Source: Escherichia phage Ec_YwIITB1. From it: a stretch of DNA of 64,000 nt. Position numbers and translations under genes: made by a program. Shown piece by piece: positions 2,863-50,014 of the stretch. The stretch lies in sequence record PQ356294.1; one strand, written 5' to 3'. The notes under the pieces were generated by a model. It did no database searches and had not been told where the DNA came from. It saw only the letters and a program-made list of their open reading frames with translations. Within the stretch, counting starts at the first letter, position 1; each line of letters starts with the position of its first letter.

Positions 2863-3336
2863 TTATTTGAATGATTTGACGTACTGAATAGAGCCTTTGC
2901 TATTCACGAAAGCGATTTTACCATTTTTGTTATACATGGTAGCAGTACGCTGATAACCATAAGTTTGTTTACCAGATTGATAACCAACTAATGCGAAATT
3001 ATCTTCACCCATTTTATTCTGCTTAGCGCGGATACGTTCATGACCGTGTGCCATAAGAACCTTAGCGTCGCCAGTTGCAATGGATCTACGAGTTTTTTCA
3101 TCTTCAACTGTATTAACAAAATCGTCAAATGAATCAAATTTAGCATGAGATTTATTATACAGTTTTCCATCTACTGCATAATTATATCCCTGTACATCCA
3201 TCTCAACTTCTGTACCATCATCCAATACAGCAGTGATTTTTTGACCTTTTTTAAATTTCAAAAGATCAGTAAAAGATTCAGCGATAATTTGAGAATTAAT
3301 AGCTGCTTCAGTGATAAATTCTTGATATGTTTTCAT
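2863..3336 (-). CDS. internal head protein (capsid-targeting-sequence family, IPII/IPIII-like)
   Basis: N-terminus MKTYQEFITEA matches the T4 internal-protein capsid targeting sequence ending in a gp21-type LxE site; located beside denV and e as ipII/ipIII are in T4. Confidence 0.7.
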   Translation of the reverse strand: MKTYQEFITEAAINSQIIAESFTDLLKFKKGQKITAVLDDGTEVEMDVQGYNYAVDGKLYNKSHAKFDSFDDFVNTVEDEKTRRSIATGDAKVLMAHGHERIRAKQNKMGEDNFALVGYQSGKQTYGYQRTATMYNKNGKIAFVNSKGSIQYVKSFK

Positions 3337-4793: not shown

Positions 4794-5278
4794 TTTAATT
4801 TCCTGCATTCAGTGATAAAATTATTTAAATTTTGAGCATATTTCTTTTCATCAAAAATCTTTTGTTGCCTGCGCATCCGCCATGGCATTTCAATGAACAT
4901 GTACCATATTCCTGATAATATTGATGCTGTAAAAATATTAACAAGTATGATTAAAAGAATCCAATCTTCCGTTCTGCCTACTGGACTTTCTATAAAAAAG
5001 CAAAATACAAATGATGACACAGGAAAACTAATGATATACCACAGAATCATAATCTTATCTGTGAACCATTCAGCATTCGTTAACTTAGCACGGCCATTAT
5101 GAATACACACGAATTTATCATCTGTTACAGTAGATGGCTTAACTGCTTGATATCCCATTCTAAACTCCCTAATTAATCGTTTCTTTGTATCTTCAGAACA
5201 GCCGCTCCAGTCAACTCTATCAACTGAAATGCCATCGTCCCCATCATCTAAATCATACCAGTGAGTTTTTAAAATCAT
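4790..5278 (-). CDS. small membrane protein (e.2-region)
   Basis: 162 aa with hydrophobic helices; ATGA overlap with upstream stop. Confidence 0.55.
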   Translation of the reverse strand: MILKTHWYDLDDGDDGISVDRVDWSGCSEDTKKRLIREFRMGYQAVKPSTVTDDKFVCIHNGRAKLTNAEWFTDKIMILWYIISFPVSSFVFCFFIESPVGRTEDWILLIILVNIFTASILSGIWYMFIEMPWRMRRQQKIFDEKKYAQNLNNFITECRKLK

Positions 5279-5650
5279 TTAATTTTCCTACAATCACTCA
5301 CAAACTCTTCCATTGATTCTTTTTCAATATAAGACATATAGCTATTATATTCCTTTAATTGTATTTTGTAATCCTTTTTTCTTTGCCAATTTATTTTAAA
5401 ATTATCATAATGAAAATATAACATGGTACCAAAGAATGAAAATAATGAAATCGCTATAGTATAATGAAGTTCACTCCAAACTTCTATTATATCTACTATA
5501 CCGCTGACGTTACTGCGGATGTTTAAAATAAAACAGTCAATTAACAATCCAATAAAAACTACCCGCAAGAGCTGCAGCCAATGCCACAGCAAAAATTGAA
5601 AATGACTCAGAAAAAGAATATTTGACTTTATTTAGTTTTGGCTTTTGCAT
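5275..5650 (-). CDS. small membrane protein, apparently frameshifted
   Basis: ATG at 5650 with AGGAA RBS opens a 37-codon frame (MQKPKLNKVKYSFSESFSIFAVALAAALAG...) that overlaps the 105-aa ORF 5275..5592, which itself only has a TTG start; the two join if a T5 run near 5554..5558 is really T4. Confidence 0.4.
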
Positions 5651-9916: not shown

Positions 9917-9992
9917 TGGTCGAGGCAGTAGGGATCGAACCTACGACCTAGGACTTAGAAGGTCCTTGCTCTTCCTTCTGAGCTATGCCTCG
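9917..9992 (-). tRNA. tRNA-Arg (anticodon UCU)
   Basis: Manual cloverleaf: acceptor CGAGGCA/TGCCTCG, D stem GCTC/GAGC, anticodon loop CTTCTAA, T arm GTAGG-TTCGATC-CCTAC, encoded CCA. Confidence 0.85.
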
Positions 9993-29879: not shown

Positions 29880-31349
29880 ATGATTGAATTAAAAGAGTTA
29901 CCTTTTGTTGATAGCGCTCCTGACGAAGGTCAAGAGCGTATTTCATGGATTAAAAATGGTGAAGAAATATTAGGAGCTAGTACTAAGTATGGAAATGATG
30001 GATCAATGAATAGACCTATTGTTTCCGTGTTTAAAAATGTCGAAGTTCTTGATGAAAATGTGGGAATTCTTAAAACTGCCATTGAAACATCACAGAAAGA
30101 TATTAAAACAATTCAAGGAGTTTTAGATGTATCAGGAGATATAGAAGCGCTATCACAGATCAGCGTTAATAAAAATGATATATCAAGTTTAAAGACGCTC
30201 ACAAGTGAACATACTGATATATTAAATGGTACAAATACTACGGTTGATAATATTCTTTCTGATATTGGTCCATTTAATTCGCAAGCAAATTCAGTTTATA
30301 GAACGATTAGAAATGATTTGCTGTGGATTAAAAGGGAACTAGGACAATATGCTGGACAAGATATTAATGGTCTTCCTGTTGTAGGAAATCCTAGCACAGG
30401 AATGAAGCATCGCATTATTAATAATACTGATGTCATCACTTCACAAGGAATACGTTTAAGCGAATTAGAAACAAAATTTATTGAATCTGATGTAGGTTCG
30501 CTTACAATCGAAGTAGGAAATCTTAGACAGGAATTAGGACAAAGACCGCCTTCATTTAGTGAAAGTATATATTCGCGTGTGCATAATTTAGATCAATCAC
30601 AAATTAATCTTAATTCCGAAATTAAATCTATCAAAACTTCTATTGGATATCCAGGAAATACTTCAATAATCACAGATGTTAACACTAATACACGAGAAAT
30701 TTCAGCTTTAACTGATGAGCTAAATAAAAGCGGAGGTGTTAAACAGCGATTAACTGTCATTGAAACATCAATTGGCTCAGATGATATTCCTTCTAGTATT
30801 AAAGGACAAATCAAAAATCACACAACTTCAATCGAAGCTCTAAATGGAATCGTCGGTGAAAACACTTCGTCTGGTTTAAGAGCGAATGTTTCATGGTTAA
30901 ATCAAATTGTTGGAACTGACTCCAGCGGAGGACAACCGTCTCCTTCTGGATCTCTATTAAACCGAGTTTCAGTTGAAGGAGAAGTTTCTGTTTTTAGGCT
31001 GAATAATGTTCAAAATCTACAAGTAGAGATAGGAAATAATAGAACAATTCAGGAATTAAAGGGCAAGTTATTGAGCTTACTTCCTTTATAAATGGAAATA
31101 ATCCTGACGGATCAACTGTTGAAGAACGCGGATTAACCAATTCTGTAAAAACGAACGAAACCAACATTGCAGCACACACACAGGAAGTAAGTAGTAATAC
31201 AGCCAAGAAGTAGTATATCTTCATTACAGGCGGATGTTCAGACTTTACAGGAAGCAGGTTATATTCCTGAAGCTCCAAAAGATGGCCAAGCTTACGTTCG
31301 TAAAGACGGCGAATGGGTATTACTTTCTACCTTTTTATCACCAGCATAA
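29880..31349 (+). CDS. wac: fibritin (neck whiskers), frame-disrupted in this sequence
   Basis: 403-codon ORF ends at TAA 31089; the continuation [17 protein letters not shown]... is in another frame to TAG 31211, and the C-terminal foldon [30 protein letters not shown] is back in the original frame. Confidence 0.8.
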
Positions 31350-38272: not shown

Positions 38273-38929
38273 TTGATTATGGGGCTTCGGCCCCTATTCT
38301 CGAGGAAACAAGTGATTATTTCTAAGTTTGTTAAAGTGAAAATTGTACCATCAAATTTTAAACATTATCAATCAAAGGGTTATAAATTAACACCTCTTGG
38401 AGCGGTTAAACATGGATTTAGGTATTATGAAATTGATGTTAAAGTTGAAGACATTAAAGGTAATACCGCGTATGTAAAATGCCGTTGCGATAAATGTGGA
38501 ATTGAATATAACCAACGCATTGGAAGAAACACTGATATTTGTCGTGATTGCCGTCATAAAGATAAAATGCGCAATAATTCATATGGTTCCGCGAATAAAG
38601 GAAAAACAGTAGAATGTATGCATGGCGTAAATCATCCAAGATGGAACCCAAATAAATCTGAAATGCGTGAATATATTTCATTGGTATATAAAGAAACTCG
38701 TAAGCATAAGAAAATTTGGTCAAAATGGCCAAATGCTGATAAAATAGGAGTGTGCGGTACAAAAGGTGCTTACCAACTTGATCATAAGGTATCTATCAAA
38801 TACGGTTTTGATAATTTAATTCCTGTTGAAATAATTGGCGGTATTAATAATTTAGAAATAATCACTTGGGAATCTAACCGAGAAAAATCAAAAAGAAATA
38901 GTGTAGATCTTTGGGATTTACTAGAATGA
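38273..38929 (+). CDS. HNH-family homing endonuclease (Mob-like), free-standing
   Basis: 218 aa between genes 18 and 19; N-terminal zinc-ribbon cysteines CRCDKCG...CRDCRH and C-terminal HNH-like region YQLDHKVSIKYGF...NNLEIITWESNREKSKRN. Confidence 0.65.
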   Translation: MIMGLRPLFSRKQVIISKFVKVKIVPSNFKHYQSKGYKLTPLGAVKHGFRYYEIDVKVEDIKGNTAYVKCRCDKCGIEYNQRIGRNTDICRDCRHKDKMRNNSYGSANKGKTVECMHGVNHPRWNPNKSEMREYISLVYKETRKHKKIWSKWPNADKIGVCGTKGAYQLDHKVSIKYGFDNLIPVEIIGGINNLEIITWESNREKSKRNSVDLWDLLE

Positions 38930-43346: not shown

Positions 43347-44908
43347 ATGACTATCAAAACTAAAGCTGAACTTTTGAACAAATGGAAGCCATTACTGGAA
43401 GGTGAAGGTTTACCGGAAATTGCTAATAGCAAACAAGCGATTATCGCTAAAATCTTTGAAAACCAGGAAAAAGATTTCCAGACAGCTCCAGAGTACAAAG
43501 ACGAAAAAATCGCCCAGGCGTTCGGTTCTTTCTTAACAGAAGCTGAAATCGGTGGTGACCACGGTTACAACGCTACTAACATTGCTGCTGGTCAGACTTC
43601 TGGCGCAGTAACTCAGATTGGCCCAGCTGTTATGGGTATGGTACGTCGTGCTATTCCTAACCTGATTGCTTTCGATATTTGCGGTGTTCAGCCGATGAAT
43701 AGCCCGACTGGCCAGGTATTTGCACTGCGTGCAGTATATGGTAAAGACCCAATCGCTGCTGATGCTAAAGAAGCATTCCACCCAATGTATGGTCCAGATG
43801 CAATGTTCTCTGGTCAGGGTGCTGCTAAGAAATTCGCGCTAGCACACAAACTACTGTAAGTTGGAACCATTTACACCTATTTCTTCCAGGAAACTGGTAC
43901 TGTATATCTGCAAGCTACCTCTAGTTAAAGCAAATTGATACAAGTGCTTCTGACGCAGCTAAATTAGATGCTGAAATTAAGAAACAAATGGAAGCTGGCG
44001 TATTGGTAGAAATCGCTGAAGGTATGGCTACTTCTATCGCTGAACTTCAGGAAGGTTTCAACGGTTCTACCGATAACCCATGGAATGAAATGGGATTCCG
44101 TATCGATAAACAAGTTATCGAAGCTAAATCTCGTCAGCTGAAAGCTGCTTACTCTATCGAATTAGCACAAGACCTCCGCGCTGTTCACGGTATGGATGCT
44201 GATGCTGAACTGTCTGGTATTCTGGCTACCGAAATCATGCTGGAAATCAACCGTGAAGTTGTTGATTGGATTAACTACTCAGCTCAGGTTGGTAAATCTG
44301 GTATGACCCTGACTCCGGGTTCTAAAGCTGGTGTATTTGACTTCCAGGATCCGATTGATATTCGCGGTGCTCGCTGGGCAGGTGAATCCTTTAAAGCTCT
44401 GTTGTTCCAGATTGACAAAGAAGCAGTTGAAATTGCTCGTCAGACCGGTCGTGGTGAAGGTAACTTCATTATCGCTTCCCGTAACGTAGTTAACGTTCTG
44501 GCTTCAGTTGATACTGGCATTTCTTATGCTGCACAGGGTCTGGCTACCGGCTTTAACACTGATACTACCAAGTCAGTATTTGCTGGTGTTCTGGGTGGTA
44601 AATACCGTGTATACATCGACCAGTATGCTAAACAGGATTATTTCACTGTAGGTTATAAAGGTCCGAACGAAATGGATGCTGGTATTTACTACGCTCCATA
44701 TGTAGCTCTGACTCCGCTGCGTGGTTCCGATCCGAAGAACTTCCAACCGGTAATGGGATTCAAAACTCGTTACGGTATCGGTATCAACCCATTTGCAGAA
44801 TCCGCTGCTCAGGCTCCGGCTTCTCGCATCCAAAGCGGTATGCCTTCTATTCTTAATAGCCTTGGTAAAAACGCTTACTTCCGCCGTGTATATGTTAAAG
44901 GTATCTAA
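43347..44908 (+). CDS. 23: gp23 major capsid protein, frame-disrupted in this sequence
   Basis: ORFs 43347..43859 (170 aa, MTIKTKAELLNKWKPLLEGEG...) and 43988..44908 (306 aa, ...MEAGVLVEIAEGMATSIAELQEGFNG... to YFRRVYVKGI) match the N- and C-terminal parts of T4 gp23; the 130 nt between them encodes the conserved middle in alternating frames with two in-frame TAA stops. Confidence 0.9.
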
Positions 44909-47601: not shown

Positions 47602-47799
47602 TCACCTTTTATTAATATGTCTTTTTCTATAGACAACTTTTTCTCGAGTTTCAAATTTATTCTTAGCAGTCATAGCTCGAGCCCATAATACAGCCACTTC
47701 TTTCGCCTGTAAGTTCAATTCACGAGCAATTTCAATGAATGACTTTCCAGACTCATGAAGAGTAAACACCACAACCTCAGTTCTCATAATCAATCTCAT
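47602..47799 (-). CDS. hypothetical protein (65 aa)
   Basis: Small ATG-initiated ORF between rnlB and hoc. Confidence 0.45.
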   Translation of the reverse strand: MRLIMRTEVVVFTLHESGKSFIEIARELNLQAKEVAVLWARAMTAKNKFETREKVVYRKRHINKR

Positions 47800-47894
47800 G
47801 TTATCGAGTTGATGCCATTATATACATCATTTTCTGAGTATGTTTTGTGTGCTTTCAAAATGAAGAAAGGGGCCGAAGCCCCTTATGATTATGA

Positions 47895-49324
47895 TTATGG
47901 ATAGGTATAGATGATACCAGTTTCTAAAGCAGTTTTATGAATGATGTATCCATTGCGTGATTCTTGAACATCAACTTCTGGATAGTCTTTCATCATCTTC
48001 TGAAGAGTGTAACGATGCAGGTAGTATTTACTGTCTGGATCTTCAGTTTTCCAATCTTTACCTTCTTCGGTCATTTTTTGGATTTCATCCATAACCCACC
48101 AGCCGCACCAGATATAAGCCGAAGTACGATGTGGAAGAGGATGAACATAAGGCAATTCACCTTCTGGTTCCGGAGCAACTTTATCAGTTACCTGAACTTG
48201 GCCTGTTGCTTTAACTGTTTTACTATCATAGTCGGTTGCTGTAACGACAGCAGTAACTTCAATAGTTTGACTTCCAATAGATGAGGTGTCAACGGTGTAT
48301 ACATTAGTTGACCCTTCTACAGGAGAAGAATCTTTCTTCCATGAATAAGTAATTTGAGCTGCTTCAGGTGCTCCGTGACATTAGCCGTAAATGTAGCCGA
48401 AGCATCTTGCTGAACGTTAATAGAAGGAGGAGTCAATGTAACCTGTGGATTCATTGTCTTCTTATTAACTGTCAATGATACTTCATTAGAAGTAACTTCC
48501 TTTGCATCATAATTTTCAGCCGTTACTTGGGCTACACACTTAACTGTTTTAGCTCCAACTGTGGTAGGAGTATAGTTAAATGTAGTAGTAGTTTCTCCAT
48601 CGACCAGAGAACCGTCAACATACCACTGATACGTAGCAGACGCTCCTGGTGGCTGTGAAGCCAAGGTAGCAGTAAATTGAACTGGGGTTCCAATAACTCC
48701 TGCTGGAGGATTAGCAGGAGTTACGGCTAACGTAGTTGTCTGTGTTTTCTTATTAACAGTCAGTGACACTTCATTAGAAGTAACTTCCTTTGCATCATAA
48801 TCTGTCGCGGTTACTTGAGCTACACACTTAATTGTTTTAACTCCGCTTGCGTCAGGAGTGTAATTGAATGTAGTGCCAGTTGCTTCGCCCACAGGAGAAC
48901 CGTCAACGTGCCATTGATACGTAGCGTTTGCACTTGGTGGCTGTGAAGCTAAGGCAGCGGTAAATTCAATTGGAGTTCCAATCACTCCAGCATCAGGGCT
49001 ACCAGGAGTTACAGCTAAAATAGTTGTTTGTGTCTTATTTTGAACCGTGATAGTTGTCGTAGTTTCTGCTGTTTCAGGTTCAGGTTCAGATTCAGATTCT
49101 GGAACTGTATTTGTTGCAACGACTTTAATAGTCTTTTGACCTGCAGGTCCTTTTAATACATAGCCAAAAGTTGCCGCTTCTCCATCTTGCGGAACATTAT
49201 CTACACTCCAAGCATAGGTAATAGTTCCATCTCCAGTTTCACCACTGGGTGTAGCAGTAAACTGCTTGGTTTCATCAATAACTCCTGTTGGGGTTTTAGG
49301 AGTTATATCAACTGTAAAAGTCAT
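47895..49324 (-). CDS. hoc: Hoc outer capsid protein (Ig-like domains), frame-disrupted in this sequence
   Basis: N-terminal ORF 48317..49324 (MTFTVDITPKTPTGVIDETKQFTATPSG...) with repeated Ig-like domains ends after ...ANVT; the fourth domain and the capsid-binding C-terminus (...APEPEGELPYVHPLPHR... to IIYTYP) are intact in the +2 frame down to 47895; the junction is at a GG run near 48373. Confidence 0.85.
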
Positions 49325-49333
49325 AAGTTATCC

Positions 49334-50014
49334 TTATTTTAATGTTACGAAAGAAGAATTACGTGTTTCACGAATTAGAACTGATCCGTCGCGATTAATG
49401 TAATAAATTAAGCTAAATAAAGTTTGATGCGCAGACGCATGCTCAAAACTGGTTGGGCGAGATTTCCAATCTGGAGTTTCAGCAATCCATTGGTAAATCC
49501 ACCAAGGAACAGTGCAGAATCCTGGATTTTTTCCAATCAGCTGAAGATTCGGGCTAAAGTTTTCCGGAAGAGTAAATACAGACGGCTTTTCAGATTCAAT
49601 AATCTCAGCTACAGCCTGCTCGAATTTTTCTTCAACAAAAGGAGTATCTTCAATCAAAACATCGGTATTTTCAGGAATTTTATCCATTTCTACTACTTCA
49701 ATTTTAATGTCAGATTTAACCGGAGAATCAATCAGAAGTGCTGCCTCTGGATTGACTTCTTCATCGTCATATTTTAATCCGTCTGCGGCATCAGCAGCAT
49801 CAATTAAGTCTTTAATAGATAACCCATCAGTCTCTGGCATAGGTTCACTAGCGAGCTTCTGGAGGGCTTCTTCAATATCAACAACGATATTATCAAAAGA
49901 TTTATTCTTTTTGACTTTTATACCAAACTGTTCAGCATATTCAGCTAATTTAGCTTTAGCTTCTTTATTATCATCAAGAGCCTTCAGCTCTGCAATATAA
50001 TCTTTATCTATCAT
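49334..50014 (-). CDS. inh: Inh, inhibitor of prohead protease
   Basis: 226 aa at the T4 inh position next to hoc. Confidence 0.8.
   Translation of the reverse strand: MIDKDYIAELKALDDNKEAKAKLAEYAEQFGIKVKKNKSFDNIVVDIEEALQKLASEPMPETDGLSIKDLIDAADAADGLKYDDEEVNPEAALLIDSPVKSDIKIEVVEMDKIPENTDVLIEDTPFVEEKFEQAVAEIIESEKPSVFTLPENFSPNLQLIGKNPGFCTVPWWIYQWIAETPDWKSRPTSFEHASAHQTLFSLIYYINRDGSVLIRETRNSSFVTLK

Follow-up and report, generated by a model that had tools for sequence, protein, structure and literature searches.

Hoc of the T4-like phages is nonessential in the laboratory and binds the capsid through its C-terminal domain (PMC10385173). The closest described system, T4 Hoc (PDB 5vf3, 8t1x and others), is a string of Ig-like domains of the 376-aa type whose gene lies between inh and 24.3, and the homologues that we found measure 376, 472 or 568-570 aa. 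Broken copies of hoc are present in other deposited T-even genomes, in about 3-4 of roughly 96 sampled records. In phage T6 (MH550421.1) an additional T is inserted at hoc nt 473 (nt 873 of sequence L067) and the gene is left unannotated; in SV76 (OM339528.1, species Tequatrovirus T2) hoc carries deletions of 11, 1 and 2 nt (indel at nt 866-869 of sequence L068); in vB_EcoM_G29 (MK327940.1) it is split into two CDS near codon 136. In all three the gene was broken by small indels, the neighbouring genes are intact and the loss is tolerated. Our literature search for natural hoc frameshifts found nothing specific. The frame-breaking indels of T6 and SV76 fall in the same A-run of hoc (nt 468-473, GGAGT[T]AAAAAG), which may be a recurrent hot spot or else a lesion that classical laboratory T-even phages inherited from a common ancestor.

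The window analysed here, a stretch of 64 kb, is part of a Tequatrovirus (T4-like) genome and extends from regB and the tRNA region to alt, with the genes of the baseplate, neck, tail and head between them. It shares long collinear blocks with Escherichia phage EPIMAM01 at a DNA identity of about 95-98%, and when the EPIMAM01 genes were each compared with the window, about 65 shared genes were intact and four protein-coding genes were broken. Among 50,697 phage records, the best match to the window hoc was 94.9% identical; for gene 23 the best match among phage records was 97.5%. A homology search with the repaired Hoc protein (see below) returned nothing nearer than 91%. Exact look-ups of 15 window proteins among about 15 billion proteins found only widely shared ones, and the private proteins of the window, including Inh, RnlB and eight others, had no exact match in that collection. 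Contigs carrying identical UvsW, gp12 or 24.2 turned out to be relatives at 88-97%, in all of which hoc, gene 23 or wac is intact. The nearest Logan contig (L074, SRR36615658) is 99.8% identical over 2.6 kb and covers only genes 11-12, far from hoc.

The hoc gene of the window is flanked by inh (49334-50014) and 24.3 (47602-47799), within the order inh-hoc-24.3-24.2-rnlB that is found in annotated relatives, and in phage G29 a terminator is annotated at the place 3' of hoc that matches the one listed in Table 1. As given, the gene contains no uninterrupted frame joining the Ig-like domains to the binding domain, since the frame changes after codon 317. The product of the 335-aa ORF reads ...TFTANVT and then EHLKQLKLLIHGRKILLL; the +2/-1 frame, GAPEAAQITYSWKK...IIYTYP, is free of stops down to 47895 and corresponds to the normal Hoc C-terminus. 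The stranded 3' part encodes the remainder of the fourth Ig-like domain and the capsid-binding domain, and its first mechanical start codon is a TTG at 48155. A tblastn search with EPIMAM01 Hoc assigned residues 1-315 to frame -1 and residues 316-474 to frame -3; the two segments met at 48374, and the second was 100% identical to the window. Inserting one base between 48375 and 48373 yields a 476-aa Hoc that aligns straight across the junction with T4 Hoc (PDB 5vf3_Z), a match far above chance (E-value in Table 1).

Table 1. Coordinates of hoc, its separated parts and the adjoining terminator in the 64-kb window.
Feature	Coordinates	Strand	Content or basis
hoc	47895-49324	-	Repaired product matches T4 Hoc 5vf3_Z with E = 8e-211; Pfam PKD, Ig_3, I-set; synteny
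ORF present	48317-49324	-	335 aa: Hoc residues 1-317, 18 out-of-frame residues, TAG (48317-48319)
Lesion site	48373-48376	-	GTC AC/GG AGC (slash at the gap); one base lost between C (48375) and GG (48374-48373)
Out-of-frame tail EHLKQLKLLIHGRKILLL	48320-48372	-	Overlaps would-be Hoc codons 318-335 (GAPEAAQITYSWKKDSSP)
Stranded 3' part of hoc	47895-48374	-	-1/+2 frame; 159 codons and stop
Probable intrinsic terminator	47866-47886	-	G+C-rich hairpin GGGGC-TTCG-GCCCC, then T-rich run; just 3' of the hoc stop

The repaired protein is a Hoc by its whole architecture. Pfam recognised PKD (residues 200-267) and I-set (293-378) above their cut-offs and Ig_3 (293-359) at 28.0 bits, just under the cut-off of 30 bits, and these matches together with the alignment to T4 Hoc reveal the string of N-terminal Ig-like domains. 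The alignment with T4 Hoc is end to end, residues 395-476 being almost identical to T4 Hoc 295-376, and the stretch from residue 318 to 476 matches EPIMAM01 Hoc at 100%. Compared with the 376-aa type of T4, the repaired protein is about 96 aa longer, the equivalent of one extra Ig-like domain, and falls with the 472-aa class that is common among relatives; unlike T4 Hoc, the window gene as given is interrupted after residue 317. The initial annotation had placed a +2 change of frame after ...TFTANVT, and this is what we observe, with 317 native codons followed by 18 out-of-frame codons to the TAG. It had also described both the fourth Ig-like domain and the C-terminus as intact in the new frame. 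This holds for the C-terminus, with its complete identity to EPIMAM01, but not for the fourth domain, which the break bisects, as residue 317 lies inside both the Ig_3 and the I-set match.

To place the lesion among its relatives, 27 related hoc sequences were gathered from phage records, IMG/VR, metagenomes and assemblies. All 27 are in frame at the site and each has one base more than the window. Neither IMG/VR nor 241 million metagenome records contained the deletion allele, and the 335-aa product was absent from about 15 billion proteins; a metagenome search for the intact site as a degenerate pattern returned mostly chance matches and three real hoc genes. Around the break, hoc is 99.1% identical to EPIMAM01, with three private differences in 711 columns and no local cluster of private differences about the gap. 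Over the 480 nt that follow the break, the window differs from EPIMAM01 in four codons and from LF73P3 in seven, all of them synonymous in the Hoc frame, and in ten relatives compared over this part synonymous changes exceed non-synonymous ones by about 3-10 to 1. By this pattern of substitution, the stranded part has been under purifying selection effectively until the present. With no non-synonymous difference downstream of it, the lesion must be either extremely recent or not real. An established pseudogene would be expected to show several lesions and relaxed selection downstream; we found a single lesion and no non-synonymous change, in contrast to the multi-lesion decay of hoc in SV76. 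It is to be noted that a very young knockout would look the same.

The identity of the missing base can be approached through the alleles of the relatives. At the wobble position of the Thr-317 codon, which precedes a Gly or Asp codon, 21 of the 27 carry T (ACT) and six carry G (ACG); in three of the latter the sequence reads ACG GGT and thus contains a GGG run. The right-hand haplotype of the window, GGA GCA CCT GAA GCA, is found in six relatives and always after GTT ACT, while its left-hand GTC is found in seven and always before ACT GAT. ACG is never linked to GGA GCA CCT (0/6), and the two allele classes that meet at the site carry ACT without exception (13/13). Furthermore, the GG of the window equals the native GG of 21 relatives (AC-T-GG/GA). 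Because both parental allele types carry ACT, the lost base is most likely a lone, non-repeated T and not a G of a run.

This bears on the mechanism that had been proposed in the initial annotation, a loss at a short G run that the restoration of one G would undo. An added G does repair the frame, and does so synonymously, but the placement of the loss in a G run disagrees with the 21 ACT relatives and with the haplotype GGA GCA CCT, which follows ACT in six cases out of six. Slippage from GGG to GG, whether in phage replication or in a homopolymer-sensitive sequencing chemistry, could draw on the six ACG relatives, on the three of these that read ACG GGT, on the frame being mended by a G and on another lesion of the window that is a homopolymer change, from four to five Ts at 5555. 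The run would however have counted three bases at best, and slippage-prone tracts in phages have been defined as 6 or more nt (bioRxiv 10.1101/2025.10.21.683753). No homopolymer of at least 4 nt was detected between a point 60 nt upstream of the site and one 80 nt downstream. With the absence of linkage between ACG and the right-hand haplotype, we regard G-run slippage as improbable; it would in any case not be a separate outcome, only a possible cause of either an artefactual or a real gap. A contingency locus was also considered and rejected, as there is no homopolymer tract at the hoc break: the window has GG, and three relatives have at most GGG, where 6 nt or more would be needed.

The hoc gap is accompanied by lesions at four other loci in the same record. 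Gene 23 (43347-44908, + strand) is split into 43347-43859 and 43988-44908 by a patch (43838-43930) with at least three small indels within about 90 nt and in-frame TAA and TAG stops. In this patch, EPIMAM01-type and T4-type blocks form a fine mosaic that is broken at the joins, and nothing resembling it was found among 735 DNA matches or 1377 protein matches. The wac gene (29880-31346, + strand) is in frame up to about 31040 and its foldon end is back in frame; between them lies a divergent block of 168 nt (31043-31210) that encodes good fibritin only in another frame and contains four stops in the frame of the gene. The best match of the block among 511 records was 84% identical. Compared with phage sb1, its differences distribute over codon positions 1, 2 and 3 as 15, 10 and 28, a signature which implies that the block is a genuine allele flanked by two lesions, one -1 and one +1. 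For the gene 23 and wac patches, the best DNA matches among phage records were 88% and 84% identical, respectively, and protein identity stayed under 90%; IMG/VR contained no match to intact copies of either. As no close reference allele was found, the lesions of these two genes are defined by reading frame only.

The small ORF at 5275-5650 (- strand; phrog_2330, a 124-aa hypothetical protein) is frameshifted by a run of five Ts, read on the coding strand, at about 5555 (window 5550-5560), where all 156 matching records have four and the four closest differ by that base only. In the tRNA cluster, a private 25-nt deletion at 9976-9992 (- strand) has taken away the 3' end of tRNA-His (acceptor and T-arm), the spacer and three nt at the start of tRNA-Arg, so that ARAGORN calls two overlapping tRNAs; in the best matches (eight records listed, all at 100% identity), the flanks map to two segments with 25 nt between them.

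The gene 23 lesions carry particular weight, as gp23 is the essential major capsid protein (PMC3012670). A gene 23 broken in this way cannot belong to a viable phage, from which it follows that the record contains reconstruction errors, and the gene 23 lesions are almost certainly of this kind. Since about 65 genes shared with EPIMAM01 are intact, such errors must be local and not general.

We consider it probable (about 0.65) that the hoc gap is likewise an artefact of sequence reconstruction and that hoc is probably intact in the real phage. The record holds lesions in gene 23 that are biologically impossible, and the hoc lesion is absent from every independent sequence. The window alone joins GTC (48377) to GGA GCA CCT (from 48373), two markers that never occur together in the 27 relatives, and the gap falls in the 3 nt between them; the association of GTC with GAT has a p of about 0.004 (Fisher, our own estimate). 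The hoc, gene 23 and wac lesions are all situated at switches between allele types, and we infer that they share one origin. The most likely setting would be the merging of two related hoc alleles that were present in one sample or read set. If the reads of two related phages existing side by side were reduced to a consensus column by column, alleles could be switched and indels left behind. Indels are not left by precise homologous recombination, and a switch of alleles within 3 nt is beyond a k-mer assembler. We consider a consensus of mixed reads the most economical common cause, an argument that for hoc depends on one linked site (48377). The odds point the same way: with about 4-5 independent lesion loci in 64 kb, the chance of striking the 1.4-kb hoc is about 10% (a rough estimate), to be set against the base rate of about 3-4% for broken hoc among deposited relatives. 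Frameshifted essential genes are reportedly named as a quality flag in the Phage Annotation Guide, and the window resembles known consensus or assembly errors in phage records in that the essential gene 23 is frameshifted and the lesions are private to the record. It differs from them in that only four protein-coding genes and one tRNA locus are hit within 64 kb and in that hoc was not broken at a homopolymer, which sets aside the commonest class of sequencing error. The earlier assignment of the hoc break to the same class of artefact as the gene 23 and wac disruptions therefore stands as the best-supported reading, stripped of its G-run cause and with the reservation that the lesions differ in character: in hoc there is a single clean loss, whereas those of gene 23 and wac are clustered in strongly divergent patches. 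It also counts against an artefact that four of the five lesion loci (the small ORF, tRNA-His, wac and hoc) are in dispensable genes, which make up about 40% of the window; random placement would bring four of five there with a chance of about 0.09 (estimate), and genuine mutations that the phage tolerates would give the same picture.

A genuine and very recent loss-of-function frameshift in hoc, in a phage that stays viable, is the alternative that has to be weighed most closely, although we hold it to be rather unlikely. In its favour, Hoc can be dispensed with in the laboratory and attaches to the capsid by its C-terminal domain (PMC10385173), hoc is broken in the T-even genomes described above, the event is single and clean in a conserved context, and further private lesions of the window are also in dispensable genes. 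The lesion positions in T6 and SV76 (the A-run near nt 468-473) and in G29 (codon 136) differ from that in the window. Against a real knockout stand the absence of any non-synonymous change in the stranded part relative to the closest relatives, the privacy of the lesion among the 27 relatives and its absence from the large collections, and the non-biological lesions of gene 23 in the same record. Several independent private knockouts in 64 kb of a fresh isolate would moreover be an unusual mutational load. If the knockout were real, its product would be a soluble 335-aa fragment of 35 kDa comprising three full Ig-like domains, about 25 residues of the fourth and the 18-residue tail; as this fragment is devoid of the capsid-binding domain, the capsids would have no Hoc fibres. 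The lesions in hoc, wac and gene 23 might also all be real, as imprecise joins from recombination between two co-infecting T4-like phages across blocks of divergent alleles, the defective recombinant being kept by complementation in a mixed population; we judge this very improbable. Still less credible is a recoding event, a programmed -1 ribosomal frameshift that would yield full-length Hoc despite the split in the gene. The required shift is indeed -1, a weakly shift-prone A_AAG (AGA AAG) is present within the 70-nt overlap, and GAAGGTG precedes the TTG at 48155; Ig-like domains in other phages are sometimes appended by programmed frameshifts (reportedly described by Fraser et al. in 2006). 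A search of the upstream frame over its last 105 nt, overlap included, found no X XXY YYZ heptamer, however; the fold of 48240-48345 (- strand) has -22.8 kcal/mol with z = -0.84 and is equalled or bettered by 32 of 200 shuffles, and none of the 27 relatives, all of which read straight through, requires a frameshift. A shift at A_AAG would in addition put out-of-frame sequence in place of 14 residues of an Ig-domain strand. We rejected programmed frameshifting for its lack of slippery heptamer, stimulatory structure and conservation alike. Internal re-initiation was rejected as well: the sole mechanical start is the TTG at 48155, and the SD-like sequence before it is poorly spaced, at only 2-4 nt.

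Either way the outcome is ordinary, a problem of record quality or one more case of a known and tolerated gene loss. If the gap is an artefact, it serves only to mark a problem of quality: resequencing or polishing has to precede annotation of the record, and the entries for Hoc, gp23 and fibritin should describe intact proteins or carry a low-quality label. If it is real, the window would represent a natural Hoc-less Tequatrovirus, adding one case to T6, the T2-like SV76 and G29, with a bearing on studies in which the Ig-like domains of Hoc are credited with adherence to mucus and cell surfaces, and on employing this phage for Hoc display. Were the recombinant origin true, the record would let the error-prone formation of mosaics in T-even phages be seen directly.

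Several further features of the window were recorded along the way. Where EPIMAM01 carries another gene together with internal protein II, the window has a DUF7412 ORF (2863-3336, - strand), and no ipII homologue was found in the 64 kb. An extra ORF of about 205-218 aa, located between genes 18 and 19 (38273-38929, + strand) and absent from EPIMAM01, had no Pfam match; it belongs to phrog_5104, function not assigned. The acidic linker SESEPEPE of the window Hoc is four residues longer than in the 472-aa relatives. Finally, the second Ig-like domain of hoc is tandemly duplicated (48456-49048, - strand), its copies being about 75-78% identical in DNA.
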